Positions 29,101-63,954 of a stretch of 64,000 nt of DNA are shown in pieces (position 1 is the stretch's first letter; every line of letters begins with the position of its first letter). Below the pieces are notes generated by a model, which was given only the letters and a program-made list of their open reading frames with translations, searched no databases and was not told the origin of the DNA. The stretch is taken from assembly GCA_905178155.1 (NCBI GenBank), contig CAJINV010000009.1, positions 3,554,275 to 3,618,274 of the forward strand, read 5' to 3'. This DNA is from Amoebophrya sp. A120. Taxonomy: Eukaryota; Protista; Dinoflagellata. A program made the translations under genes and the position numbers.

Positions 29101-31724
29101 GTGCCAGATCCGGGCGACGGATTTCTTCGGGTACGCGGCAATCCAGACGATTTTGTGGGTGGCGTTTTTCGGCGGGTATGTTTTTTTCTGTAAGTTCAGC
29201 ATGTACGGAGCCGGGGCGGATAGGAGCGAGAAAGTGGTGGATCCGCAGTTTTTCCCGATTTGCTTGATGATCTCGCAGATTCTGTTCCTGTTTTTACCGT
29301 CCGATTCCTTCCGCCGGAAGTACCGGTGGCAGATTTTGGAGCTCATCCGGGACGTGATGTGTGCCCCGTTTGTGTTGGTGACGTTTGGGGCGAACATTGT
29401 CGGGGACATTTTAACCAGCTTCGTGAAACCGTTGTCCGATTTGGAATACACGTATTGCTACTTACTGTACATTGTCTCATTCGACACCGGGGAGGTGGAA
29501 GATTTTGGGGAGGCGAAACTGGAAAGCAGTTCTAGTACAACTCGAGCATCGCAACTCGCTGACACAACTTCTGCGCACGTACGGATAAAACACGACGTGG
29601 AATTGGACCAGGTGGCGCTACACCAAGAACACTGTAAGGAGATTTCTGGACTACTCTTGCCCTTCGTTCTCGCTCTTCCCTACTACTTCCGGTTGATGCA
29701 GTGCGTCGCGCGATTCCGGGCGACACGGGATGCGGAGTGGGAGAAGTTACTCGCGATTCAGGCAGTCGCGGATGCGGAACAAGAAAACGCGGAACTTGCA
29801 AGGAAGGAGGCGGAAGCAGCTGCTGGTGGAAATGACGATGTTGAAAATGCGGACAAAACAACCCCTCTCGTCCACAGCCCCTCGAGGCGTCTCTCCACGA
29901 GTTCGGTCTCGAGTTCCGGTGATTTGAAGCGGTCTGCCTTCGCGAAACGGGGGAAATCTGGGTCGACGCAGACAGCCTCGGCTGCGCACCACGGTACTAG
30001 TACCTCTGCTCACAACCGGCAAACAATAACCGGGTCTTCGGTCGACTTGGCGATCACAACGTCCATCCTAGATCGACCATCCACCACTCCGGGCGTCGGG
30101 CCAAACGTTGCGGATGAGGAGTTACCAGCGACGATAGCGCACGAACAGCACGAACATGGAAGTGGGAAGCAAGTTCAATCATCGAAAACCGCGCCGACTC
30201 TCCCCCCCTTCTACAAATCGCCCCATTTTTGGAACGCGGGAAAATATTGCACCGGGATTCTCGTCGTGTTTCAGCAGTACCTTACCGATGATTGGCGTGT
30301 GTGGTTGGTGATCAGCGCGGTTTCCACTTGTATCAACTGTAAAAATGTCTGGGTCTGGAAGAATGCATGTTTGTCATGCTTGTCTGGCATGGCTCTTAAA
30401 TCTGTCGTGCACGTGACCCAAGAGCGCCACTGTTCTGTGATGCAGAAACGCAGTTTGTCATGCAGAATAGGCAACACCTAGAAGCTCAGAAACTTGTCAT
30501 GCTGAGCCAGCATTTGTGGCCTCATCATGAGACGCCATCCAGCATCACAAGTTTCCAGACCCAGATATTTTTACATTTGATAACTTGCTACATGCTCACG
30601 TGGGACATGTACATGGACTGGAATTTGGTTTGGAATCCGATTTATGCAATGCAAAAGCATCGTACTAGTAGTAATCGCATTACAAATTTGCTCAGCATGA
30701 AAAATGGAATTGCTCATGCTGAAGATTTACCTTGAAAAAGAAACTTGTCATGCATAAATGCAGTTACTGTTACTACGAGTGCGATACTTTTGCACAGCAT
30801 ACGACTCCCTATCTACGCTATCAGTTCTTCAAATTTTTGCACAAAAACTACCAATTATTGAAACCGATTTTGAAGTTTCTGGGGTTGCAGAGCTTGGTTG
30901 CAGGCGGGGGAAATAACAATAAAGCGGGTAATATTGCTGGTGGACTACAGGATTCGTCCACACAAGACAGAAACAGTTCACGCGAAAATATTAACTCCAT
31001 GACGATGAGCAACCGCGCCACCATCGGGATCCACCACGCTTTAGAGTATGAATTGCAAAAGTATCGTACTCGTATAAATGCATTACAAATTTCCGCCTCA
31101 GTGTGAGAGATAAAATTTGTAATGCTGATTCGCCTTAAGAGAAAGATTTGTAATGCATGATTGCAAGAATACGAGTACGATACTTTTGCACAGGATATAG
31201 AGCACGCGAACACGACGTTGCACGAACCGTTACTCGGCGCAAACACCAAGCATCACAAACAGTTCAATAAGGACAAGGTGCTGATTCACGAACGAGCAAG
31301 TGAAATTCACGAGAAGCACCGGTTTGAGCACGTGGCGCCGGACAGGACGAAATTGTACCCGGAGCACTATTATCTCTGGATCCCGGTGCTGAACTTTTTC
31401 CTGCGGTTCACGTGGATTTTAACCATCGTCCCCACCCCGGCGTATTTATTGCAGGCGTACTTCTTCGCGGACAGCAGTGGTGGTGCGAGCAATACAGATT
31501 CGACGAGCCAGCCGGTCGTCGCTTCATTATCCGTTTCAGAAAACTTGATCATCTTCCTCGCAGCCGCCGGAGAAATCTACCGCCGCGCCCAGTGGGCGTT
31601 ACTGAGGCTGGAGAACGAGCACTTGACAAACGCGAGTCACTACCGTGCTTTTTGTTGGGTGCCCCCAGTACACGCGACGCCGAGCGGCGGGAAGCTGTTT
31701 AACAGTGGGAATGTGAAAATTTGA
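26194..31724 (+). CDS. SPX-EXS domain protein, XPR1/SYG1/PHO1-like phosphate exporter
   Basis: SPX start MKFGALL..PEWTDHYLDYNAGK and LNYSGYRKLMKKHDKK; EXS motifs GDILTS, NAGKY, YMLTWDMYMDW, EIYRRAQWALLRLENEH. Six introners. Confidence 0.92.
26638..26947. mobile_element. Introner family D
   Basis: TSD CCTCA/CCTCC. Confidence 0.88.
27024..27172. mobile_element. Introner family B
   Basis: TSD AAGGA; join GKDVDQ. Confidence 0.9.
28790..28940. mobile_element. Introner family I
   Basis: TSD CGACG/CTACG. Confidence 0.88.
30331..30582. mobile_element. Introner family A
   Basis: TSD ACTTG; join STCYMLTWD. Confidence 0.9.
30643..30801. mobile_element. Introner family B
   Basis: TSD CGATT/CGACT. 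Confidence 0.87.
31047..31197. mobile_element. Introner family B
   Basis: TSD TAGAG. Confidence 0.9.
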
Positions 31725-32539: not shown

Positions 32540-35500
32540 ATGGCCAAGAACTACGGCACAAAACCACTGCAATCCGCCTCCGCGGCCAGGCCAGAAAGGA
32601 TGTTGCGCAGTGTCGCGTCCTCTGAAACCCCCGAGGGCGCTGGCGTGACGTCGGACCAGATTCATTTTCCCGTACTGCAACCTAGTTGCGGGTCTGCAGC
32701 TCCTGCACCAGAGAGTGACGATAGGCTCGGACGTGCGTGTGGCGAAGCTACACGTCGAGAAATCCAGCAAACACGCAGCCCCTCAACTACAGTTCAACGA
32801 TTCATGCCACTGAACACACAAGGTTTACAACTTGAGCGTTCAAGAACTTCCTTCCGGCATCCCAGGACGACGAATTCGTCATCGTCAACATCCGGTTCCA
32901 GAAGTACAGAGTCAGGTAGGAAGAACAGCATCAGCTTCATCGCGGATCATTCTGTAGGTAGTCCGGGCGACGTTTTGGTTTTATCGCCAAAGTTGGAGCA
33001 GATAAAAAGAAGACGAATAAAGCATGTCCTCACGCAACAAGCACCACGACCGTTTCCCGCGCAGCGACAGAGAGCCGCTTCACGGAGAGCAGAGCAGGGT
33101 CGTGTATTTACCGGAGCGGGGATGAAGGTTTTTGCAGCCGGAGGGCATCAAGTTCAAGAAGTTTCTACTAGACGAAGATCCAGTGCAAAAAATCATGACG
33201 CCACTGCAACAGGAGCACCACAAGAAGGTCGTGGGTACCTCCCTCTTTCAAATTCCGGTACTATTCCCGCGGCTAGCACTAGCACTTCTTCCCCGTCTTC
33301 TAGCTCATCTTCATCAACGATAACATACAGCAAGAAAAAAACCTCCTCCGCCCGAATTCTCTGCAAACTGAAGACATTTTTCAGATTGTTCCTCTCCCTC
33401 GCTGGAACCGCTATGACGATCCCTGGCGCCCTCGCCCAGTCTTACCCCGGCGGACTAGCGCACACGTCTGCCCCCCATCTAGAACACGGGTGGACCGACA
33501 ACAGTTATGCGAAGATCATCGCGAACTCCGAAAAAATCTTGAAGTCCAACGTGTACATCCACAGGCTGTTGGCCGAAGACCAGATCCAAGCGAACTACGG
33601 ACGGGCACATTACAACAGTATTCATTGGAAATTCAAATTTTTGCTGTCTGATTGTCTGATCGACGTATTACCTGATTGTCATGCAGGAGCATATCTATGA
33701 CCTTCACCCTCGCAAGTGGACACCTTTTGCTTACTGGAAACAAAACAAAATATAACAGAGAAGTACCCCTTCACATTAGCCTGGCACCTCCAGCGACAGT
33801 CGGGGCGGTGGGTCTGTTCATTGCCGGAAAAGGCAAATGATGAGTCGTTGAAATCGGAAGAAACGCTGTTATCCGTTTTGAACACGTTGTTTAGCCGGTT
33901 TATGCACGACAAACTCCTGGAGTATCACGATCTGGAGCCCGCGAAATACGTTTCATCGAGGGTATAAATAGAAGATGCTGCTACTTTTTTTACAAACAAG
34001 ATAAAATCGCCGAGGACCACTTTGTCATGCGTTTTTGCCCGCAGGGCACCCGGCTCGTCTTGCTGGAGGACTTCAATGAAGATGCGCATCATGCTGAAAA
34101 AAACCTCTATCAGGTTGAAATCGACCTAGCAACGAAGATCCCGCACATGGACCTTGCGGATAGCCAACTGCTGCGATGGATGGTCAACTTGGTAGTGGAT
34201 CTGCACTACCCGTTTAACCTGGGCTTCCCCGACGCACCCGAGGACACGCTGGATACAATGTATAATTTCATTGCAAGAGCTTCATGTTGCATAGAAAACT
34301 TCTATGCATGACAAACTAGCTCTCTGACGGATCTTTGTGCAATACAAATTTCTTTTCTCAGGTACAACCTCGACCAGCAGCCGCTCGCGAAGCTCTGGAC
34401 CTCGATGCAGGACAAAATCATCCTTGCCATCGATTCCAACGCCGACCTCGACGAAACGAAAAACATCGACATCTCCGACCAGCACCCGTTTGAGCTCTTC
34501 TTCCAGTGGGCGAGCGAGACCACGAAGATCGTATCCAAGAAAAAAAGCGCGTAAGTGTAACTTTGTAGGACGCATAGCATGACAGATTCGCTTTGCGTAT
34601 ACATAAAAAACCTGTTATGCGCAGCTAGTTGCTAGTAAGTGAAAACTAACACATATGAAGCGAGCTTATGACGCACACCCAGCATGACAAGCGTAGCTGT
34701 CTTGCGGTCTCTGCATGACAGACTTACACATCATACGCACTTTTTTTGTCGCATAGATCGCGTGCGACATCTACCGGGATGTATCTTCCAATTCGGACGA
34801 ATTTCCCAAGCAGTACATGGTCTCCGCGCAAGTTTTATGCACTGCAAACGTATCGTATTCGTAGTAATCGCAGTCATGCATTACAAATCTAGTAATCAAG
34901 GTCATTCCGCATTACAAATTACCTTTGTAATGCTGAGCCAATTTGTAATGCCATTTTATACTAGTACCTACGATAGTTTTGCAGTTCACAAGTTTACGCA
35001 AAGTGGGAGAAAATCTTGCAGAAAAGGATGGAGGAGGCGGCGAAACACGTCGTGATTTTTCTCAAGTATAGCACTTATCGAGATCATGATCTACATCTAT
35101 GACTATGTTATAGGAGTTTGCGAAGTGGAAGTTGTACACACTAAATCTGTCAGCTTCTACCTTACAGATTGCAAAAATTCAATGCAAATCAAGATCTAAT
35201 AAATTGTCAATAAATTATGTAAAGGAACATCGCCCTCCACAAGGCCCACCGAAAAGCTGTGGCCCAGGGCAAAGGCCGACACCACCCACGAAAGCACTGG
35301 AAACGGGATTTTTTTCGAAACCTCTGCGTCGCGGCGGTTCTCATCCCCGCATTTCTATGAGAGTGCACAACTCCCCCTTCCCCTCATTTGTATAGCATGA
35401 ACTGCAATACAAGCATCAGCAAGTGTGCCGCTCTTGCATGACAACTTTGCACTGCATTGTAGTGCTATATGGACTACCCCCAGAACTTGTCATGCAAACA

Positions 35501-35731
35501 GTGCCAAGAGGCAAAGGGTGGATTGGGTATTTTGTATGGCAAACGAGGGGGAGGGGGAGTTGTGCACTGTCATAGCCTCTCTGGCTGATGCAGAAATTTG
35601 AGAAGCAGCAGAACATCTTCAAGATTCTCTTCAACAATAGCAAGTACGCGGAAGGGTGGGGCAGCGCGATCGGCGGGACACACAACGTGTTCGGTGGCGC
35701 AACGTCGAGCAAGGAGCTGAGGAAACTGTAG
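32540..35731 (+). CDS. Divergent S1/P1 nuclease-like protein with C-terminal membrane anchor (start uncertain)
   Basis: WMVNLVVDLHYPFNLGF, KLWTSM, spliced WASETTKIACDIY, KRMEEAAKHVVIFL; hydrophobic tail LCVAAVLIPAFLWLM. Confidence 0.6.
34532..34755. mobile_element. Introner family J (TATCCAAGAAAAAAA..GTGTAA)
   Basis: TSD GATCG; join TKIACD. Confidence 0.88.
34836..34990. mobile_element. Introner family B
   Basis: TSD AGTTT; right terminus CA. Confidence 0.85.
35356..35574. mobile_element. Introner family H (TIR TATGAGAGTGCACAACTCCCC)
   Basis: Clear TIR; flanks ATTTC/GCCTC diverged. Confidence 0.85.
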
Positions 35732-36554: not shown

Positions 36555-39500
36555 ATGAATCTCATTTCGACCGGCCGCGACAGCGGCCTGATGCTGCGCC
36601 GCCGGTCTTCCTCCCAGATGGCCGAGCAGGCGAGCATGGGAGTGACGCCAAAGCACATTTTCGACCAACTCGCTTCCGGTGCCGGAAACTCCGGGAGCTT
36701 CTTGTTGGACAACATGAATTTGAAGCGGAAAATCCACGTTCTGCTCGAGAATCGATGTACTTTTACCATGCTCTAGTACACGTGCAGCATGACGTCTCTC
36801 TTGGTCTCACGGCTCCATATCACATGCAGGACAAACCCAGCATCTTATGCATAATGTGCAATATCAATTTTAAATGGGAAAACGAAAATCAAAATCATAA
36901 CAGCCGTTACCCACTTCATTCACCTGTCCATCTGTCTTTCCATTCTCTGCGTCATCTTCGAGACCCTATCCAGGAAAAAACACCCATCCCCATCCATTTT
37001 TTGCATGACAAATAGTGGATTTTATGCATGTTTTGCATGACAAATTGGATGGGGATGGGTGTTTTTTCCTGGATAGACCCATTGGCGCTCCTACGAGGAA
37101 TTTTGGAACGTGATGGAGATCTATTTCACGACGATTTTCACGATCGAATTTGGTCTCCGATGGTACGCCTACATCCCCATCGAGAAAATGATGGTCAACG
37201 CCCGCTGGAGCTGCAGAACTCCTACTTCGGACGATGAAAACGCGTACCTTTCTCCGTATTACAGGAGAGCCGGGCGGTTTGACTTCCTGACGAGGTCCTG
37301 GCTGAATCTGCTGGATTTCTTCAGCATTTTACCGCTGTATCTGTCGGCGGTGTTTTCCCTGCTGGACCTGGTTTTGTCGGACGAAAACAACAGTGACGAT
37401 AATTCCTCGACCACTTCAAATTCCTCATCTTCCAACGAGCAGCACGCGATGGACGTTATCAATGCTCTCCGGGTGTTGCGGATCTTTCGGTTGATGAAGA
37501 TTTTGCGGAATTTGAACCCCTCCGGGTTTTACCTAATGTACCAAACCTTGAAGCGGAGCTACACCGGGATCTCGATCTTGGCGTTTTTCCTCTCGGTGTT
37601 TCTGTGTCTCTTCTCCTCTGTCATGTACTACGCGGAGATGCAGGAGTGTCCGAGTAAGGGGCTGCTTTTGAAGGATTTCCGGTACGAGTTTGAAGGGACC
37701 ACAACAGCAAGTGCTATTGCCGGCGGTGCGACAATATTAAGCAGCACGTCAACCGAACAAGAGATCCTGGCCGAATACCGCGAAGCGTGCGCAGCCTCTA
37801 CTTCCGGATTTACGAAGAATCTGCCCTTCCTCTACCCGGGGCGAAATCCACTGATGTTCCAAACAACATCTGCCCAAGCTGTCACTACTATCGTGCCTGT
37901 AGGTGCTGGTGGTACTGTAGTACAGCATCAAATCAGCGCAGCTTCCTCGGGTAGTACGGGTTCCATCAACGCCTTCGAGCACGACATGAGCAAGGCCTAC
38001 CTCTGTTGCGATTTGCAGCAGGGGCACGAGGCGTCGGAGAATTTTCCCTCGGTTCTCGCCGCAGCGTGGTGGGCGGTGTATCAAATGCAAAGATGTCTGG
38101 GTCTGGAAGGTTGCAAGACTTGTCATGCAGATCTTCCATGACCCATAACGCCAGCAATGCATGACGTAGCATCACAGACTTTCAGACGGCTTCCTGATGC
38201 CTACTCCGCATGAGAAATGGCCTGTTCCCATGGCGCAGACTGGACTTCTCTTGCTGGTCATGCAATACAGATTTGCTTAGAGTCCAGAGATTGCATGACA
38301 AGTTGCAAAATTCCAGACCCAGACATATTTGCAATGCATACGGTGGTCACGATGACGACGGTCGGGTACGGGGATTACGTCCCTGTGACTTTTTTCGGCA
38401 AGGTGGTCGGGATGATCACCATGTTGAGCTACGCAATGGAAAACTATCGCACTTTGGTAGAAAAAATAGCATCACAAATAATTATTTTGGCAAGAACAAA
38501 AGTGGAATTTGTAATGCGGTTTTCCGTTTGGAAAGAGATTTGTCATGCGTGAATGCAATTTGTACGAGTGCGATGCTTTTGCAATGCATATGAGCGGAAT
38601 TTTGGTGATTTCCATGCCGGCGGCCATCATCGGCTCAAAATTCCAGGAAGTTTTGGAAGAGTACGAGTTGCGGAGGTACAAGACGTTGAAAAATAATACT
38701 AGCGGGAGTTCCAATTCAGGAGTAGAACATCAAGGTACAGGTGTAGCACAGAATAGAGACAAGACCGCAGAACATGAACAGCAAGACTCCAATCAACAAG
38801 CCATCGGAGCTGCACCCGCAATAGGCACGACCCGGCGGCCGTCTAGCCTGAAGAAATTTGTGCCGGACGATCTGCAAAGGATAGCGGAGGGGAAGGAGGA
38901 AGAAGACAGTGGGGCGAAGACGAATAGCGGAAAACTGGATGAAGCAACCGAGAGAATTGGAAGTGCAGCAGACAAAGAGTTGTCTTTTCGCCTGCAACCG
39001 ACCAGGCTGTTCACCACGGGAGAGGAGGAAGACGAGAAACACAACCTGAATCGCATCAGCGAGGGGACAGCTGTAACTTCAACATCCCAGACAGAACAGG
39101 TAATATTTTCCACCGCCAAGGGTGAACAACACGCACTTCCCCCGCCCAGAATATGAGAGTGCACAACTCCCCCTCCCCCTCATTTGTAATGAAAAATACC
39201 AAATTCACACCTTGCTCGTAGGCACTGTTAGCATGACAAATTTTGGATCCTCAAATAGTACTACAATCCGCATGCAGATTTGTCATGCGAAAGCCCCTTT
39301 TCTGCTGTCGCTTGTGTTGCTGTTCATGCAATACAAATGAGGGGGAGGGGGAGTTGTGCACTCTCATACATCAGAAGTGTCGGTTTTCATTCGGAGGAAG
39401 AAGAAGACGAGGAGGATTCCACCAGCGTCGACGCAAGCAGTTTGCACTATGGGACTCTCAAATGTTACATTCTCAACTGTTACACGATTTGTAATGCAAA

Positions 39501-53312: not shown

Positions 53313-56300
53313 ATGTTGGCAGCGCAGGTGGCAGCGGCCGGTGGGGTCGCAGCCCAGCAGCGCATGAGCGGCTCGATGGGGGCACCCCCGCAGATGCCCC
53401 AGCAAGCCCACCCGGGTAGCAAGATGATGCACGACCAAGCGAGCTACGGGTATCCTAAGCAAAAACGTCCCCACGACCCCATAGTCAAGCTGGTAAATCT
53501 GCAAGACAATTCTCCACGCTTTGGGAGGTGTGCATGACAAGTTCCCATCTGCAGTGTAGTGCTGGTCAGCAAGGGCAGACGCATGAGAAAGCCAGTTTAT
53601 CATCGTGTTTACAGCATTCTTGCAAATTCCTAAACACAATTGGAAATGCCTCTCATCATTATGGAGATGCGCATTACAAATGTTCCTGTCATTGCGCAGT
53701 TGCATGACAGCTATGGAGTAGGGACGTTTTTACATAGGATAACAGGGCACCCACCTCCCTCATTCCGCAGACACGGTTCCGGGGCAGGAGGGGCGCTACG
53801 TTCTACGAGTTATCAAATGCAAATATGTCATCTGGGTCTGGAAGATTGCGAGATTTGTCATGCTAGTCTGGCATGACTCTGCACTGCACTCTGTATTGTG
53901 TGCTGGCCACCAAGAGGCTCTCTTGCCTGTCATGCAAAAGCGCACTTTCTCGTGCGAAATACGCATCACACAAGCACGAAAAAACTTGTCATGCTTGGCG
54001 GCGCATGATTACAGAGCACTTATTGGTCACGGACTTGCATCACAAGTTTCCAGACCCAGATGACATTTTTGCATTTGATACGAGTTGAGAAAAGACAACT
54101 GCTTCACGGACATCGCCATGGCGTCCTGGTTATGCATTGCAAAAGTATCGTACTCGTAGTAATCCCATTCATGCATTACAAATTTCTTTCTCAAGTTAAA
54201 TCCGCATTACAAATTTGATTTCTCATGCTGAGGAAATTTGTATTCGCAATTCATACTAGTACGGTACTTTTGCAGTGCATACTGGTTCGAGAATTTCGCG
54301 CTCCTCGTTATCGTCCTGAACGCACTGTGGATCGGGGTGGAGGTTGACATAAACGACGGCACCAAAGACGCACCGCCAGAGGAGCTTTTTGTCGTGGTGG
54401 AAAACGTGTTTTGCGTTCTGTTCACGGCCGAAATCTTCGTCCGCCTCATGAGTTACAAGAAGGCGCTTTTCTTCTGCACCGACAAGGAGCTGCGATTTTG
54501 GAACATCTTCGACTTGCTTTTGGTACCACGCTAGTACAACGTAGTTTGGAGGTTGTCACGCAAATTTCCTGTATGTAGAAATTGTGAAGTTCTTGTAATA
54601 ATCCACCTCATGATCCTGGTGCTCTATCGCGCACAGTATAATAATTGCTATTCAAAGGGACTACTTCTACTACACACCGCGTTGAATTGATTCTTGTAGC
54701 TCGAAGTGCTGTTGAAGACACCCATCATGAAAAACCTACCTCAGGTGCTGTTGATGGTAATAGAAAACTGGATTCTCTCCTGGGCAATGGGCGACTATGG
54801 ATTGCAAAAATGTCTGGGTCTGGAAGATTGCCGTGTTTGTCATGCATATTTGGTATGGCCAAGGATGTCTGTAATGCATGACCTAGCATCACAGATTTTT
54901 ACAAGGCTTCCTGATGCCTATTCCGCATGACAAATTCCGTCCCCGCGTAGCACAAACTGGACTCCTCTTGCTGGTCATGCAATACAAATTTTTTTCGACT
55001 CCCAAGCTAGCATCACAAGTCCCAACTTTCCAGACCCAGACATATTTGCAATGCATAGCGACGAGGAAGGTGCCATGAGCTCGCTGTCCGCGTTGCGTCT
55101 GCTCTATGAATCTGTCAGGATTGAAATCGTCAAAGTTGAAATGGTTTGTCATGCATAAAATGCAAGGCATGAAGTGCCTGTCTTGCCGGGGTGGCAAGTG
55201 AGGCAGATTGTGGGCCTATTTAGGGTTTGGGATAGAACTGCTAAAGGAGCATGACAAAAGCACTGCTCTGTGCCCAAACAGCATGACAAATTGGATTTCG
55301 GTGCTCCGGAAATTTGTCATGCGCCGCTTGAAAATTGGTCTCCCAAGTGGTATCCATTCATGACACATTATTTCAACTTTGTCGATTTCAAACCTGACGC
55401 GTCCATATGCTCAGGTTGCTGCGTATCTCCCGAATCTTTCGAATGGTCCCCGAGCTCGGAATGATGGTCAAATCGATGGCGGCGGCTGCAAGGTACATCG
55501 GCTCATTGTTGAATCAGCTCCTCACATACTTTGGACAAAAACAATGTCAAGAACCAGTGGATGAACTCGAATTTGTTGTGCTGAAGATGCAGAATGTTGT
55601 GACGTGAAGATGTGATAACCCACCTTTGTCATATACGATGTCATCTTCATTCATTTTTGTAAATTTAGCATGACAATAAAAAGAAAAACTACCACCTCTC
55701 CTAGGTCCGTGTCTTCAACGATGGTGCTGGCAGTCGGGCTCATGTACGTCTTCGCCGTTTTATTCACGCAGTGGGGCTATGCATCGCAAATATGTTCTTC
55801 GGGTTTGGAAGATTTGTCATGCGAAACGACTTCGTATTTGAATTTCTTCTACTTTCACGAAAAGAAGTCACATGATCTGGGCTTCTATGTTTGTGATGCG
55901 TCGAGAGTGCGGTTTCTCCCCAGCTTTTTTTGTTTTTTGAAGTGCTGAATGAATAATCTTCATCCTCACAATGCAGCTTGTAAAAATCTAGAGCAGCCCG
56001 AGGACAACATGTTTGCAATGAATATCGGCAAAGAAAAGGAAGACTTCAATGGAAAATGCCGAGACTTGCCAACGCCGTGCGAAGACGATACAAACTACTT
56101 TGGCTCCCTCGGCTGGAGCTTTATGAGCTTGATGCAGATATTGGTACCATCTTGATTTTTTACGATCTCTTGATGCTTCATCGTTTTGGGCAGATGAAGT
56201 AGCGTAGAAATAACTGGAGCTCTGTCATGTGAAAGGAAATTCGTGCCTTTTATTCTTCCCAAGAAATCCGTCCCTGCTTCTTGACACGCGACGAGTATGT

Positions 56301-59300
56301 TTACGTATACATGAAAAAAGTAAAAGTACAGATTATACACGGAACGAAAGCGATGATGAAGCCATCCAAAATAAAGTTGCAACTGATCTTTTCCCCCAAA
56401 TAAGGTATACGACGACACTTTCGCGCTTATCCGCAAGACTTTCCTGGCCAACGCACTCATGGGTCTGCTGCTGATCATCTTCATCCTCGTTGGTGCCTTC
56501 ACGGTGCTCAACATGCTAATTGGTGTCTATGGCGTTCTCGAACGTTACATTCTGAGCTGTTACATGAATTTGTGATGCAAGAACCGCAACAGTGAACGGG
56601 GCAAGCTTGCAGCTTTCGCATCACAAATCCGGCACAGATTTAGGCGCTGTTTAGCCCTTCGGGGATTTGTCATGCGAAGTGGCTTGATTGTCTGGTGGTT
56701 CATGATGTTTTTCGCGGTTCTGACCCTAGATCTCCTGCGTCCGAAGCTGCTTGCGGCGACGGTGCAAAGGTTTTTGAAGTGGCGCAGTCGGGTATGCATG
56801 ACAAATCATGTGACATCAGTTGAGAATGTAACGTTTGAGAATCCCATAGTGTCATCTGCGAGATTGTGTCGACCACAAAAAAGGAAGATATGAACACGAA
56901 GCTTTTCACCTCCGCACAACAAGAATCGGAACTACTACACGTGCCAATCTTGCATGAGAAGTACAACTAGCAGCCTGTCAAGTGTTGTAAGTACCTTTTG
57001 CTTTTTCAGCAACAGAAATAACCTTCGTCTCGGTTTTAGCAAGAACTTGCTGTTTTTTATCCAGGTCCACCTCCACCCGAAATTTGTGATGCGCGATGTG
57101 CTTTGGTGAAACAGGTTTGTGTTGCATAGGAGAGGAAGAGAAGCTACTCATGAACAAGGTCGAGGATCTTTTCGCGCAAATGGACGCCGACGAATCTGGC
57201 ACCATCTCCCGGGAAGAATTCGAAGCCAAGACCGCACTCCTAGAGAAGCTGGGCCTGGACCAGTCCACAATAAGACTAGCCTTCGAACTCATTGATGACG
57301 ACCGCAGTGGAAGCTTGGAAATGCAGGAATTCATACACATGGTATGAAATTTCATGCGATTGTTGTAGTTGTTGCAATACAAATATTAATTAGCATCTTC
57401 CACCGGCGCAGGCATGATGTTATTTTTGATTGTAGCGTTGTTGTGAGATCACTGTACGAACAAATATGACACGTGAGCATGATCACAACCACAAGAAGCC
57501 TCAGAAGCCTCGTTCGCTTGATGTTGATGAAGTGCGGGTAAATAAAAATATGGTTTTGCGGATCATCATGATAGAACCCGAACAGCAAAAGCGGAGCAAC
57601 ACGAAAATCTACACGTGAACTTCTAGCAATATGAAAACGAAAACGCATTCACAAAAACTACACTTAGGTTTTCCGGCTGTTGCACCCCCCGACGTCACAG
57701 GACCTTTTGGTGATAAAACGAAATTTAGCGAAGCTGTGCGACTCCCTCGGTTGCGACGTGTTCGATGCGCCCCCACCCATGAAGGCCAGCAAGAAGAGCG
57801 GACGCGCGACCTCGGGCGGCGGAGGCAATGGCCCCTCGGACGGGGGCTCCGGAAAGGGGGAGGGGGAGAAGGAAGAGAAGGTGGCGAGCGGGTTTGTCAA
57901 GAAGTCAAAGACTATGGCGTTCTCAACTGTTACATCTTCAACTGTTACATGGATTTGTGATGCAAGAATGAAAAAAGAGCAAGGAGGAAGATTGCGCCTT
58001 TTGCATTACAAGTTTGGTGCAGATTATAATGCTATCTAGTGCGTCAAGAACTTGTCATGCGAAGCAGCTTGATCCTGTAGATGTGTATTGTAGTTTTGCA
58101 TTACAAATCCATGTAACAGTTGAGAATGTAACATTTGAGAACGCCATAAAGACCTTCTCGGGGATGGAAACCAGTGTGGCGCAATACAGCATCGATATGC
58201 ATTGCAAAAGTATCGTACTCGTACTAATTGCAACTTCTACGCATGACAAATCTCGTCCTTAAGGTAAAACAGCATGACAAAAAAATCCAGTTCTCATGCT
58301 GGGAAAATTTGTAATGCATTTTTTATACGAGTGCGATACTGTTGCTGTGCATAATCGAGCATGTGGAGCAACAAATCAAAAACGCAGTGGCCCTGGCGGT
58401 CAAGCAGGAGGTGGTGTTATGGAACAAAAGCCTCCAAAGTGTGTCACTGTCGTGTCTGAAAAAATTATTCTTTTTCTTTCTCAGTGTCACCCCGGACGAC
58501 TACACCGGATGTTGACACTACGACAACCTCTACTGCTAGTAGCCGCGCAACAGAAACATAGAAAGTGGTCGAATTATATTCAATGTTTCAGATTGCTACA
58601 CAAGCACACTTTTTTTTGTTCTTGCATAAGCGCCGAGACTAGGGGCAGGAGGAGGAGCGGGCGGCTACGGTGGCTACGATGCCGGCGCGGTATTTTTTTA
58701 CTATGTGGACATGGGATCTACATCTCGATCTAGGTGTGCATGACAGAATTTTTTACAAACGAAAATCGCCTCCGTGTCCGTGTGACTTGTCAACGTGTGT
58801 GAATTGACGAGATAAGTAAACAAAAGTGATTTGCCATGCACAAATGTGAAACAAACACAGATGTCAAACTACGGTGGTGGGGCTTCGAACGAAAATTTGG
58901 AGAGCATCAAGCGCGAAGTCCGGGGCTTGCAGGATTCCGTCCAGCGGGTGGATATGAATTGCAAGAGCATCGTGCTAGTAGTACTTAATCGCATTACAAA
59001 CTTGCTCAGCATGACAAATGGAATTTGTGATGCTGTTTTACCTTAGTAAGGAGACGAGACTCGAATAGCTTCGCCCGCTCGGTGTGACATCGCAAACTTG
59101 CGCTAGAAGGAGCATTTTTCACAAAGTTCACCTCCCGCCGCGGGACGCGCACGCTTTGCGTATCACCTGGGAACAACGTTGCTGCGTCTCGCGCTGCATC
59201 CCCCCGCGGCCTAGTGGATGCGTTTTCAAAGCATGTCGAGCCGGAAACGCGGCTAGAGACGCCTTCGCAGTGCGTTTCTGGTTGGAAATCTAGCAAGCGA

Positions 59301-61837
59301 CGCCGTCGCAGTGCATTTCTAGCTGGAAACCCACCTAGCGACGCCGTCTCAGGGCGTTTCTAGCTAGAAAGCCAGCTAGCGACGCCGCCCCGGTGTGTGT
59401 CCAGCAGGGAATCCAGCTAGCAATGCCGTCCCAGCGCCTTTCTAGCTGAAAGGAAATACGGCCGGAAAGGCAGCGGCAGCGTGTTTCCGGCTAGAGATCC
59501 AGGCGGAAAGGCATCGCCAGCGCGTTCCCAGAACGAAATCCAGCGGGAGAGGCATCGCCAAAGCGCCCCCGGCTGGAAGAAATTCAGCCGGCCGCGTCTT
59601 TGCAGAGTATTGCTAGCGTGAAATGGAGCCGGGGGCGCCTTTTCTTTCAGAGCATTCCTAGCGGGAAACCCAGACGGAGGCGCGTTTTTTTCTAGCCGGG
59701 AGGAAATCCAGCAGGGAGGCAGTGCATTACTTAAAGAGGCATCCGCAAGCAACGCGCCTCCAGCTGGAAATCCATCGAGGGCGCCTCTTCGATGAGTATC
59801 CAGCTGGAGACGCCGTGGCAATGGAAATCCAGCTTGCTGGAAACGCCTTTTCGAGGGAAATCCAGATGGAAACGCATCGAGAAGGCTTTTCCAGCGCTTT
59901 CCCGCCCGACCTTTTCAAAGTGTTGGAAGCTGGATTTCTAGTAGAAGACGGCTTTCGATTTCTAGCTTGGAATCCAGGCGCGGGGAACAGTTTGAAAAGG
60001 CATCCGCGGCGCATTGTTAGCTGGGATTCCAGGTCAAGGCGCCTCAAGGTGTTGCCAGGTGGATAGATTTGCGGGCGGAGATGCCTCGGGGCATTTCCAG
60101 CTGTCAAGAATCGCAAGGCAGCTGATTTCTCTTCGGTTTCCCGGGGTTTCTTCCCGCGTTAGCAAAACTCTTCTGGCTACCCGGGGAAAGGCTTGCCTAG
60201 AAGGATATTGGGTAGGTAATGGGAAGCTATCGGGAAGGGGTGGCAGAGCTGGAGCTCTTCTCGGGTTGTTGTGCTTAGCGCGGCTCTTCAGGCTACCCGG
60301 GGCAAGGATCTTCTAGTAGGGTAGCGGGAGGGTGTTCATTGGGATAGTGGAAATGTGTTGGGAATTTGTTTTTTTTTTCCCGAGTTGCTGCGTTTAGCAC
60401 AGTTATTCTGGCTACCCGGGGCATGGGTTTTCTAGTAGAATGCCTGGAAGGTATTGATGGAGGCATCCATCTGCGCCATCGTTGCACGCCTTCCAGGTGC
60501 AGCGTCCGTGGCTGCGGTTGCCGCCTTCCGTCTCCGTCGGCTGCTCGCGATGTCTCCGTGCCCGCGATCAGCTGAAGCTTTTTTTCCTTAGGGATTTCAT
60601 TAAGAAAGTGACACGCGAGCGCGCGGATCCGATTGACCCCCTACGTCACTCCCCCCCGCCCCTTCGAGATGATGACACTGGGCCCCAATCTGTATGAGTA
60701 GTTTTTATTTTTGGGATGAAGACTTACATGCGGGGGGCCCTCGCCCCCCCCCGCGCCCCCCCCCGCCCTTTCGATATGATGACACTGCGCCCCAATCCGT
60801 ATGAATAGTTTTTATTTTTGGGATGAAGACTTACATGCGGGGGGCCCCCGCCCCCCCCCGCGCCCCCCCCGCCCTTTCGATATGATGATATTGCGCCCCA
60901 ATCTGTATGAAAAGTTTTAGATCTAAGATTATAGCTTTAAGATCTAAGATCATGACTTTTGACATTGCGCCCCGATCTGTAGGGATGCTTTTAAGATCTA
61001 AGACGATAAGAGCCAAGATTATGGCTTTTGAGATGAAGACTCACATGCGGGGGGCCCTCGCCCCCCCCCGCGCCCCCCCCCGCCCCTTCGACGTGATGTT
61101 ATTGGGCCCCAATCTGTATGAGTAGTTTTTATTTTTGAGATGAAGAACTACATGCGGGGGGCCCTCGCCCCCCCCCGCGCCCCCCCCGCCCTTTCGAGAT
61201 GATGACACTGCGCCCCAATCTGTATGAAAAGTCTTTAGTTCTAAGATTATAACTTTAAGATCTAAGATCATGACTTTTGAGACGCTTGGTCATAGCTTTA
61301 AGATCTAAGATTCATTATGAGATGCTTTAAGATTCAGATTAGATGACTTTGAGACGCTTTTTAGAATCTAAGATGATGACTTTTGAAATGAAGACTCCAG
61401 AATTCTGCGATAGGTTTAAGATTTCGTAAGATTTGAGATTGAGATAAGATTTGATAATAAGATTGGCGATTCGAATAAGATTTGAGACTGAGCTAAGATT
61501 TAAGATTCAGATTGAGACTGAGACTTGAGATTGAGACTTGGTGTGAAATTGAATTACTCAATTTGAATTATTCATGAAGTTGAATTATTCAATTTGAATT
61601 ATTCACGAAATTGAATTATTCAATTTGAATTATTCAGAAAATTGAATTATTCGTGAGTCTTGCGATGAAATTGTAGATATGACTATCAATTTGTCATGAT
61701 GCATAACAGCAATTGGTACGAGTGCGATACTCTTGCACTGCATAGTGGAAGTGGTGCTGCAAAATCTACGGGACAAACTGCAGGTTAAGCGACGGTCAAG
61801 CTCGCAGCAACAACAGGGAAACAACTCGTCACAGTAG
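53313..61837 (+). CDS. Second single-domain 6TM voltage-gated cation channel with two EF-hands; last exon lies beyond a 2.8-kb intron
   Basis: WFENFALLVIVLNALWIG; spliced S4 LSALRLLRLLRISRIFR; S6 TVLNMLIGVICEIV; EF-hands DADESGTISREEF and DDDRSGSLEMQEF; terminal join VQRV|EVVLQNLRDKL..stop at 61835-61837. Confidence 0.85.
53451..53741. mobile_element. Introner family K (TATCCT..G.AAAAACGTCCC)
   Basis: TSD ACGGG/ACAGG, which yields GT-AG ends. Confidence 0.87.
53811..54080. mobile_element. Introner family A
   Basis: TSD CGAGT; 3-nt insertion present in both TIR arms. Confidence 0.9.
54131..54281. mobile_element. Introner family B
   Basis: TSD CTGGT; join ASWFEN. Confidence 0.9.
54796..55057. 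mobile_element. Introner family A
   Basis: TSD GCGAC. Confidence 0.9.
55105..55407. mobile_element. Introner family F inside S4
   Basis: TSD TGCTC; join LRLLRLLR. Confidence 0.9.
55778..56024. mobile_element. Diverged A-like introner
   Basis: Flanks GGGGC/TCGGC; join TQWGKEK. Confidence 0.75.
56528..56848. mobile_element. Introner family C
   Basis: TSD GTGTC; join LIGVICE. Confidence 0.9.
56889..57128. mobile_element. Diverged introner (singleton)
   Basis: TSD GAAGA/GGAGA; imperfect TIR TATG(C)AACAC..TTTCACC. Confidence 0.75.
57913..58148. mobile_element. Introner family C
   Basis: TSD AAGAC. Confidence 0.9.
58196..58353. mobile_element. Introner family B
   Basis: TSD ATCGA. Confidence 0.9.
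58418..58628. mobile_element. Strongly decayed introner
   Basis: TATG..GAACAAAA termini; flanks diverged; removing element plus 5 nt restores frame. Confidence 0.55.
60645..61270. repeat. ~107-bp GC-run minisatellite with an AT-rich variant unit
   Basis: CATGCGGGGGGCCC..CCCCCCCGCGCCCCCCCC recurs at 60727, 60834, 61043, 61151. Confidence 0.9.
61545..61652. repeat. 31-bp tandem repeat built from the palindrome TTGAATTATTCAA
   Basis: About 3.5 units of GAAATTGAATTATTCAATTTGAATTATTCAC. Confidence 0.9.
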
Positions 61838-63321
61838 GGGGACGACGCGCGGATGATGTTCTTGGTGTCGTGATTTCGTCAAGTTTATTTCTCAGATGTT
61901 ACATACTCCTTGACAAGAACTACTCCCGGTGCTGTGAAAAAGTAAAAGACACGACATCGACAGTGATATATGGAAAAGCGAAAGAACTCGAAAATGCTAT
62001 GTACAAATGTCTATACCTACGATAGATTTGTTGTCCCTACAACTAAGGAGGTGGAGCGAGAAGATAGTTTTACCTCTGTGCATCAAGAAAGCAATACACT
62101 TCTGGGCTTCATCTTGAGGAGATCATTTTTTTACCCGACGAGGACAACTCCACCTAGTAGAAGATCAGCTTTTCTCCTTTTTCAGGCACAGCAGCATGAA
62201 AAGTGCTAGACCCCCAGCGAGATAGTGGTGTCCTAGTCTTCAAGGAGAACCAAAAATAGTAGTGCCGCAGTGGCTGTGGTGCTGCTTCTGCACAAAATGT
62301 TGACTCGGATAGCATCTATTTCGTCGGAGGTAGTTGTACCGTAGTACTACTAAGGTGTTATTGGTCATTTGATTTTCCACAACGAACAGAGCCGTATGAT
62401 CTAGACCCTGCTGTTGATTGGGTAGTTGCTTGTCGTCGTTCCACCCCCGGCGTCCCCGGCCACAAAAAAACACAGTACAGAGTTGTCGCAGTCATGCTTT
62501 TACTTCATTTCTACCTCCTTGCAGTACTATCCTAATATCTCCTCCTTAAATATAGTCTGTCAATGAAATATTGTGTTTAATTTATCATGAAAGTACGAAA
62601 ATGTATTGCAGCGAGCACGCGGCCGTCGCGTGCTTTGTTTATTATGTTTCCGAAATGAAATCACAATCACAAGCAGAAAGCACGAGCAGAACCTAACCTT
62701 TCGTAGGAGGGATTATATTCACGTAATAAAAAAAAATGCTCGCACAAAAAAATCATCCACTGTATAATTCTGTTGTGAATCTAGACCGCAGCCTGTAGTT
62801 GAAGCTTGTACATAAATTCGACTGAAGAGAACAACTTCTATAAGCGTGAGTATCAACTTGTTATGGTGCTGTACAGAGAAATAGAAGAAAAGCTTAAGCT
62901 AGTGCTTGACGAAGACGACGGAGCCGCCCAGGCGTCGTATCGGCTTGTAAGCACGCCGACGCCACGACGAAGCAGTGCTGGCTTTGTTGCGTTGGCCGTG
63001 TTCTGGAGGAGCAACCAGATGGAAAATCGTTGCAAGACCTACTTTCGGTTGCAGTGCCGCATCGGCATCCTCTCTGCGATGTCCTTGCAGAAGAAGTTAC
63101 TGCTTCATAAAAGGCGTATAATTTTTCATCGGTTTCGTCCTCACACCTTGGCTCCTCGTCCTCCTGCTGCTGTCATCAGGCGACAGGCGATTTTTACTCG
63201 TACACACAGCAGAGGTTCAGAAACTACTGCTAGTACCTCAATACCTCGGTTTTCGTCCTACTTCCCGTGCCCCAGAACAAAGACTCGTCGTACTCCCCTC
63301 GTCTCTGTGAACTTGTCGTTT

Positions 63322-63480
63322 TATGAGGCTCATGCTGTTTGTAATGACGGCTCATGGACAGAGTTTTCTCTGTCGTCGTCATGGACCCCAAAGCCTCTGT
63401 ATGAGGCTCATGCTGTTTATGCAAGACAAATTTCAGATTCTATTGTAACGTTTGGGATTGCAACATCTGAGCAAGCCATA
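63322..63480. mobile_element. Broken family-C introner (one TIR only) at the Top2 truncation
   Basis: 63420-63480 matches the reverse complement of the 9186 left end; internal duplication TATGAGGCTCATGCTGTTT at 63322 and 63400. Confidence 0.7.
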
Positions 63481-63954
63481 TCGTGCATTTGCACCGGGAC
63501 CCCGGACCCGTTATTCTCGACGGAGATTCTCCCGGTATTCGTGTCCATCTCAACTCTGATTTCGTCGCAGGTGCTGTCGCGCTGCATGTGGTCCGCGGCG
63601 TTTACCAGGATCTCGTCGAAGATTTTGTACAGGGCGGGACAGTACCTGATAGCAAAAGTATAGAGCTTCATCGTCTTCATGCATTACACGCCTTTGCCTC
63701 AGGCCGCGAGTTTTGCATCACAAATAATTGTTCTCGCCATGCAGTACAACAACTTCCTTATACCTGAGAACCCTCTCCTCAAATTTCTCCCCCGCTGCGT
63801 TCAGCACGAACATCTTCTCTTTCCTCTCCTGCCGGGTCCCCACGTACGTATCTGGCCGGGCTAGAATGTGCTCGTGGTGCGTCATTTTGGAATATTGCTG
63901 TTCCTCCTTATTTGATGCACCAGCACCACCGCTCTCTTTGGAGCTGCCGGTGGC
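63481..63954 (-). pseudogene. TOP2: Type IIA DNA topoisomerase (Top2) N-terminal fragment, apparently truncated at an introner
   Basis: Spliced QYSKMTHHEHILARPDTYVG..RVLRYCPALYKIFDEILVNAADH..ISVENNGSGVPVQMH; intron 63646-63763. No Top2-like continuation is visible downstream, and the 5' end lies outside the window. Confidence 0.7.

Follow-up and report, generated by a model that had tools for sequence, protein, structure and literature searches.

The stretch of Amoebophrya sp. A120 DNA analysed here (64 kb in all, hereafter the window, to which all coordinates refer) carries, just before the last exon of an ion-channel gene, a 2797-nt intron that is spliced out exactly and has non-canonical ends. 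The underlying element, 58953-61744, is an introner of a type already known in A120, with a foreign element nested inside it. We think it probable that a 157-nt introner with hairpin-forming ends was invaded later by a 2.6-kb repeat moving on its own, possibly by a Helitron-like route, and that the resulting 2.8 kb are cut exactly with the ends likely being read alone. A first-pass annotation, made from the letters of the window, had already described a giant family-B introner split by cargo and hiding the last exon of the gene; the arms of the element, a spliced joint in a transcript contig and the 157-nt element recovered on rejoining its halves all bear this out.

The host gene encodes a single-domain ion-channel protein of 596 aa and is made of 18 coding exons and 17 introns, 12 of the inverted-repeat type and 5 of the GT-AG type, the latter all starting with GTA. 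Its 18 exons correspond exactly, over 53313-61834, to P0001 (CAD7960633.1), an annotated Amoebophrya sp. A120 protein, with 100% identity in the EF-hand exon (57090-57344). The parts of the gene that matter here are the following:

53313..61837, + strand: coding sequence of the host gene, with an Ion_trans domain, EF-hands and a C-terminal coiled-coil-like tail; RNA joints cover the last 10 introns
58860..58947, + strand: penultimate exon, with joints 58688>58860 and 58947>61745; its 3' edge may slide by up to 5 nt within the duplication
61745..62752, + strand: last exon, about 29 codons including a conserved motif, stop codon at 61835-61837, then 3' untranslated region to at least 62752

Two neighbours flank this gene. 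Directly upstream, from 46816 to about 52000 (+ strand), there is another, divergent channel-like gene that also contains many introners. The other neighbour, an exon with a HATPase_c domain (63417-63683, - strand), faces the host gene from the opposite strand in convergent orientation and resembles what we take to be the start of a type II topoisomerase.

Excision of the giant intron was followed in seven of 14 sequencing runs, X1, X2, X3, X6 (cargo only), X11, X12 and X13. X3 was classed as RNA-type because its contigs lack every one of the ten introns from 55774 to 61745, and X1 as DNA-type because its contigs pass unspliced through the neighbouring introns. A 1708-nt X3 contig runs unbroken from 57131 to 62752 over seven introns, the giant one included, and supplies the transcript joining the two exons over the insert that the first-pass annotation presupposed: its joint 58947>61745 skips 2797 nt, that is, the element and one copy of its 5-nt duplication. 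The joint is known from this one contig of one run and is found in none of the contigs of the DNA-type run X1; the raw-read RNA runs X12 and X13 (same species label) give only 5 and 9 partial reads at the locus and do not speak for or against the joint. Contigs drop rare forms, so that they do not bear on the efficiency of splicing. The low cover of the cargo in RNA-type contigs was not taken as a level. The spliced translation is identical to P0001 across the last 378 residues compared, and the continuous, coiled-coil-like frame to the stop that had been read from the DNA is thus found both in the annotated protein and in the X3 contig. The public gene model already contains the giant intron and may rest on the same data as X3.

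The intron cannot have been removed by a GT-AG cut. A GT and an AG do occur at its boundaries, one nucleotide out of register, so that their use would remove 2798 nt and shift the frame, whereas the product shows a loss of 2797 nt; none of the six possible cut registers has GT-AG ends. Retention of the intron would lead to a stop within the left half of the introner. Conservation gives independent support for the splice: the motif that spans the junction and continues after it is kept in four of six homologues (P0002, P0003, P0004 and P0006, strain A25 included), while it differs in P0005, and P0007 is truncated. An orthologue on the metagenome contig L018 (325-2058) is uninterrupted at the site of the giant intron; this orthologue, on a contig of 50.6 kb, has no intron at all. 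The last exon adds about 29 residues followed by some 0.9 kb of 3' untranslated tail, and the exact removal of the swollen intron with retention of this conserved exon supports the earlier suggestion that such introns can be a safe haven for large inserts.

The introner itself is delimited by four features, the inner two of which are separated by the cargo:

58948..58952, + strand: left GTGGA copy of the 5-nt target duplication
58953..59054, unstranded: left half of the family-B introner, 102 nt, with the left arm at 58953-58980
61690..61744, unstranded: right half of the family-B introner, 55 nt, with the right arm at 61717-61744
61745..61749, + strand: right GTGGA copy of the duplication

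The two arms are complementary at 22 of 28 positions (79%) and both begin with TAT. The flanking direct repeat is perfect (GTGGA, 5/5, 58948-58952 being the same as 61745-61749), as the first reading of the locus had it. When real family-B arms were combined into 226 non-cognate pairs, no pair had a 5/5 duplication (four had 4/5), and none of 20 block-shuffled windows yielded an element combining an arm match of at least 17/22 with a 5/5 duplication. When 59055-61689 is cut out, the rejoined 157-nt element aligns end to end with the 16 intact B copies of the window at 69-83% identity, the intact copies being on average 78% identical to each other. The break lies at an A|T step inside a conserved motif of the family, with an ambiguity of 1 nt and without duplication, and an X1 contig with the joint 59052>61699 represents a close family-B relative free of cargo. 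The two halves had thus been rightly recognised, but their inner ends, first placed at 59046 and 61688, are at 59054 and 61690 (+/-1), leaving a cargo of 2635 nt. According to the available text of Farhat et al. (2021; PMC7789003), the A120 introner motif consists of TAT, seven variable letters and then at least three As. After TAT and seven letters, the giant element reads AAG on both arms, A being found there in 23 of 26 family-B arms, so that the family conforms to the motif and this copy departs from it. The variant shared by both arms (AAGAG/CTCTT) had been singled out before; it is real, but it does not exceed chance, as 13 B elements with 208 arm sites showed 2 matched double changes where 0.9 would be expected (p=0.23), and an argument from compensatory change was rejected on this ground.

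In the whole 64-kb window, about 50 TAT...ATA elements of 109-330 nt are present, which belong to many families and nearly all have 5-nt duplications; 58953-61744 is the sole well-supported TAT...ATA element longer than 1 kb. Elsewhere in the window, two inverted blocks of about 95 nt (35356-35574 and 39152-39368), 82% alike and 3.6-3.8 kb apart, probably represent a single family, with one copy in each orientation.

The cargo consists of tandem arrays, from its left terminus to a palindromic array at its right end (all features unstranded):

59055..61689: nested non-coding repeat element (the cargo), 2635 nt, without duplication at its ends, located at an A|T step (ambiguous by 1 nt)
59052..59108: left end of the cargo, with two small hairpins; further elements have this end in common and part from it after about 55 nt
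59239..59560: 41-nt tandem array, with degenerate copies on to about 60030
60159..60456: three copies of a unit at a spacing of 116-119 nt
60651..61227: 107-nt tandem arrays with C-runs, broken by 21-nt repeats
61233..61540: AT-rich arrays with units of 21/22 nt and of 6 nt
61544..61652: AT-rich palindromes repeated in a 31-nt array by the right end of the cargo

The tandem periods are therefore 41, about 117, 107, 21, 6 and 31. The termini read CG...TCAA on the + strand and TT...CTCG on the - strand; TTT flanks the cargo on the right, and the left flank ends in GAGA. The segment 59088-59098 is an imperfect inverted copy of 61656-61667 (8 exact nucleotides and 3 more after a gap), located 33 and 22 nt inward from the respective cargo ends (p=0.034 against shuffled sequence). 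Both ends can form weak hairpins of -3 to -7 kcal/mol, values given without a shuffle control. Pfam searches with six longer ORFs of the cargo detected no transposase or other family at E<0.001 (two weak matches had E-values of 0.007 and 0.07), in agreement with the earlier remark that no transposase-like ORF was visible. Rfam gave no match to the cargo at E<=1, and ARAGORN found no tRNA gene in it. Self-BLAST of the cargo against the remainder of the window gave no hit, and BLASTN no match between the element and 69 related loci (L018-L086). An exact 20-mer of the left end was absent from the metagenome contigs, as was a 24-mer of the right end from the viral contigs; an 18-mer of the left end hit 17 loci in viral contigs, in two contexts and with no likeness past the word itself, and these hits were put down to chance. 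No support was found for the cargo being an rDNA spacer, a tRNA-derived SINE, an LTR element or viral DNA.

A DNA transposon with terminal inverted repeats and an LTR element were rejected, since the cargo has neither terminal inverted repeats nor TG...CA ends with a target duplication. The 3-4-nt repeats near its ends are at chance level and, if taken as its limits, would leave a B element of 164-169 nt containing foreign sequence. With Helitrons of type 1 the cargo shares the absence of target duplication and insertion at an A|T step, as judged from one site, but its termini are not 5'-TC and CTRR-3'. With Helentrons and HINEs it shares central tandem repeats, a lack of coding capacity and dispersed copies; it is not inserted in TT with at least two Ts on each side, nor does it have subterminal inverted repeats of 11-15 bp, the 5' one 2-4 nt from the end. 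Because these terminal motifs fail, the cargo is filed in neither group, and we put forward a Helitron-like nature only tentatively.

Read depth and flanks suggest that the cargo is independent of the introner. In X1, its interior has a depth of mostly 430-1650 (62 in one finer bin) versus 42-45 in the unique flanks, and about 3-6% of the letters in the deep cargo contigs are unlike those of the window; although read depth is not itself a copy number, this points to roughly 10-15 copies of the cargo in the genome. An X1 contig covering 58311-59024 (left exon and arm) has a depth of 42. Another, 61663-63310, which contains the cargo end, the right arm and the last exon, is unbranched, has a depth of 45 and shows no difference from the window; no other copy thus combines the cargo end with this B arm. 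Five X2 contigs exit the left end of the cargo at 59052 into mutually unlike flanks (agreement 0.53), and one more contig with another flank was found in X6. Several contigs diverge after 59108, so that the cargo terminus of about 55 nt is common to further families, and it may be that the other five left flanks come from families with only this terminus in common. Loose right ends of other cargo copies were not seen among the rows listed. The cargo ends (59052-59108 and 61528-61682) are deeper than the interior in the DNA runs, and versions with other letters occur in the RNA-type contigs of X3 and X6; further elements share the cargo ends, perhaps including a transcribed partner. The X11 depth at 60834-60923 is noise from C-runs. 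Taken together, this makes it most likely that the cargo came into the intron as a separate element, of a non-autonomous kind.

The first-pass annotation had also entertained the view that such introns are carriers, in which case the B arms would have captured the cargo and would move it as one composite transposon of 2.8 kb. Both arms and the 5-nt duplication are indeed intact, inverted-repeat introner families of 0.8-1.2 kb are listed for A120 (PMC12130899, in the accessible part of supplement 8), and a single jump of a composite into the host-gene site is conceivable. We nevertheless regard this view as very improbable, and the carrier role is not supported: against it speak the junction of cargo and right arm, single-copy at a depth of 45 next to a multi-copy interior some 10-15 times deeper, the five unlike flanks at other copies of the left end and the finding that only two contigs per DNA run pass from the cargo ends into B flanks. 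Nor do we give much more than a token chance to an assembly artefact, by which an ordinary B intron would have been wrongly given a repeat. It is true that the contigs listed include none that extends 31 nt to both sides of the left junction and none over the whole insert, that X1 and X2 may be the source of the assembly, and that at many cargo positions the sole X1/X2 contigs show other letters than the window. On the other hand, cargo end, right arm and exon follow one another in the contig 61663-63310 at single-copy depth without any difference, X1 contigs over 60570-60713 match the window with 0 differences, and X11 contigs, from another study, match it with 1 difference in 195 nt and 2 in 226 nt (about 99%). 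Moreover, the joints listed include no DNA joint 59054>61690 with the letters of the window.

The position of the cuts appears to obey a simple rule. All 12 inverted-repeat introns of the host gene, whose lengths range from 156 to 2797 nt, lose the element plus 5 nt. At four of them (55778-56024, 56889-57128, 58418-58628 and 53451-53741) the two 5-nt flanks differ, yet the element plus 5 nt is still lost, and the letters retained allow only a cut of 2 nt before TAT and 3 after ATA, or of 1 and 4. Three of these introns are documented by the RNA contig and one by the public protein, the narrowest limit coming from a single intron, 58418, whose duplication is almost wholly decayed. This suggests a fixed-offset cut that is independent of the duplication; applied to the giant intron, it would give the ends GA..TG or AT..GG. 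Proteins do not separate the 2+3 from the 1+4 solution, since at 30643 and 48329, the sites that could tell them apart, the alternatives are synonymous. No paper describing such a fixed offset was found in the openly accessible text searched.

How the ends find each other was approached by folding. The earlier suggestion that end pairing may define the intron over kilobases is consistent with the arms of the giant intron being each other's best partner within it (about -28 kcal/mol vs -22 and -24 for the next best); it is weakened by the predicted probability of the stem, which is 0.95 for the rejoined element but 0.26 for the full-length intron, and by a stronger arm outside. Since the terminal stem is also part of the minimum-energy fold in two of six controls with shuffled cargo, and given the full-length value of 0.26, the folds are no proof of pairing and call for no special property of the sequence. 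The left arm of the upstream B intron (58196-58225), which sits 760 nt from the giant intron, is predicted to pair with the right arm 61715-61744 at -41.5 kcal/mol, more strongly than the latter's own left arm, and nevertheless the joins in the RNA contig are correct and unskipped. Pairing energy alone does not explain the choice of partner; because the upstream B arm is the better one, the order of transcription or proteins must also matter. Pairing of the ends across kilobases is plausible in these models, and it is likely that nothing but the ends is needed for these unusual introns to be recognised, probably by way of the stem, nearer introns closing first during transcription.

The main rival to this reading is protein recognition of each arm: proteins would bind the TAT-N7-AAA sequences of the two arms separately and then bridge them, RNA-RNA pairing of the arms being incidental and the history of the locus the same. 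The low stem probability at full length and the stronger wrong partner 760 nt upstream would be readily understood in such a scheme. So would the fact that matched arm changes are not above chance in families A and B, that arm positions 4-8 are often unpaired and that the TAT-N7-AAA frame is common to many unrelated families. Past position 13, however, the arms are wholly family-specific and still complementary within each element, which transposition alone could explain, and the giant element is spliced although it lacks the third A on both arms; on balance we consider separate binding unlikely, while taking it more seriously than any other alternative. A two-step route is possible but unsupported, and we rate it as highly improbable: as in a twintron, the ordinary spliceosome would first remove an inner GT-AG intron, 59046-61676, and the 161-nt B-like remainder would be removed afterwards in the usual way. 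The sequence does offer GTA as a donor at 59046 and TAG as an acceptor at 61676, GTA is the start of all five GT-AG introns of the gene, and the 161-nt remainder is predicted to fold with a stem probability of about 0.98. Such a pair of sites is nevertheless to be expected among the 24 GTA and 92 YAG sites of the element, the joints listed include no such inner joint, and the donor-like site apparently also exists in the cargo-free B relative.

Recognition of the ends, probably through the stem, remains our preferred reading, and the following history may be proposed. To judge from the anatomy of the locus, a family-B MITE would have landed in coding sequence, duplicating 5 nt of it. Another element, non-autonomous, of uncertain class and with about 10-15 copies, would then have entered the middle of the B element at an A|T step, without duplication. 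The mRNA lacks the element plus 5 nt, and the original frame is restored. In the nascent RNA, the arms would pair and the cuts would be made at a fixed distance from the stem (2+3 or 1+4). Nearer and shorter introns would likely be the first to close, and the gene's 12 introns of this type would thereby be kept from pairing wrongly with one another; the interior of the intron would accordingly be free to accept insertions. Transposons nested in introns are common. The locus is of interest as a natural deletion-insertion test, in which the interior of an intron was split and lengthened 18-fold with the product unchanged, which indicates that the signal lies in the ends. Together with the fixed-offset rule, it yields a sharp and cheap prediction that can be examined genome-wide and makes the open question of splicing testable; it also indicates that introners can shelter other mobile DNA inside the coding genes of a compact genome. 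One might go further and imagine a U1-independent machinery that measures the stem and cuts at a fixed offset whatever the sequence or length, some 30,000 introners serving as neutral landing pads, and here an undescribed rolling-circle-like, satellite-bearing family, but this broader picture is speculative and, in our view, rather doubtful.

Several elements of this picture are already known, namely the intron type, the giant intron in the public gene model and long end-paired introns in euglenids. In the available text of Farhat et al. (2021; PMC7789003), introners are described in A120, a hairpin is proposed and U1 is reported as undetected; more than 60% of Amoebophrya introns lack GT-AG ends, their splicing mechanism being left open, apparently with no U1. 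Introners of this kind have inverted repeats of 8-20 nt or more at the two intron ends and a direct repeat of 3-5 nt where exon and intron meet. The giant intron resembles these introners in its inverted arms starting with TAT, its boundary direct repeat, its non-canonical splice sites and its membership of a repeated family, in the same strain. It differs in its length, 2797 nt as against a mean of 240 nt for the non-canonical introns, in an analysis limited to 40-1000 bp; the longest A120 intron given is 35,152 bp. That text describes no nested insertions in A120 introners, and it calls the splice position relative to the hairpin variable, whereas the four informative introns examined here fit one fixed offset. 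More generally, no paper on nested insertions in Amoebophrya introners was found in the openly accessible text searched.

With regard to the cargo, the accessible descriptions of HINE, DINE-1 and Cg_HINE (PMC4067079, PMC7492417) provide the closest likeness: these elements are non-coding and dispersed, lack target duplication and contain several inner tandem arrays, and non-autonomous Helentrons and Helitrons have conserved termini common to families and small terminal hairpins (PMC4067079, PMC7492417). The A|T target is that of Helitron1 (termini as given in the part of PMC13085455 available). Unlike Helitrons and Helentrons, the cargo has no 5'-TC/CTRR-3' ends, is not flanked by TT on both sides, and carries a subterminal inverted repeat of only 8 exact nucleotides that is not close to either terminus. 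None of the 50 of 58 A120 families checked in supplement 8 of PMC12130899 is classed as Helitron, and the cargo ends, the B motif and the gene identifier are absent from the 14 supplements of that paper as far as their cells of up to 400 characters go (no sequence files among them).

Nonconventional introns of euglenids, as presented in the accessible text of PMC11282704, are likewise MITE-like, have inverted repeats that join their ends, range from dozens to several thousand nucleotides and are removed by an unknown mechanism. They belong to an unrelated lineage, however, and have a CAG/CTG stem, and an independent origin is inferred (PMC11282704). Closer at hand, the accessible parts of Gozashti et al. 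(2025; PMC12130899) report A120 families with long terminal inverted repeats: fam38, of 808 bp, with a 5-bp TSD and TA/TA termini, as well as fam103 and fam200, of about 1.19 kb and about 2.5 kb in the alignment. The giant intron shares with these families the 5-bp duplication, the TA ends, the non-canonical sites and a length near or above 1 kb, so that tolerance of length was already implicit in their existence. Similarity arising from secondary insertions was filtered out in that study, in which short A120 families also have alignments of several kb; these may hide other nested cases, small gaps also being able to swell large alignments. The families of PMC12130899 are, as presented there, whole long elements, whereas in the giant intron foreign DNA has come to divide a short element in two.
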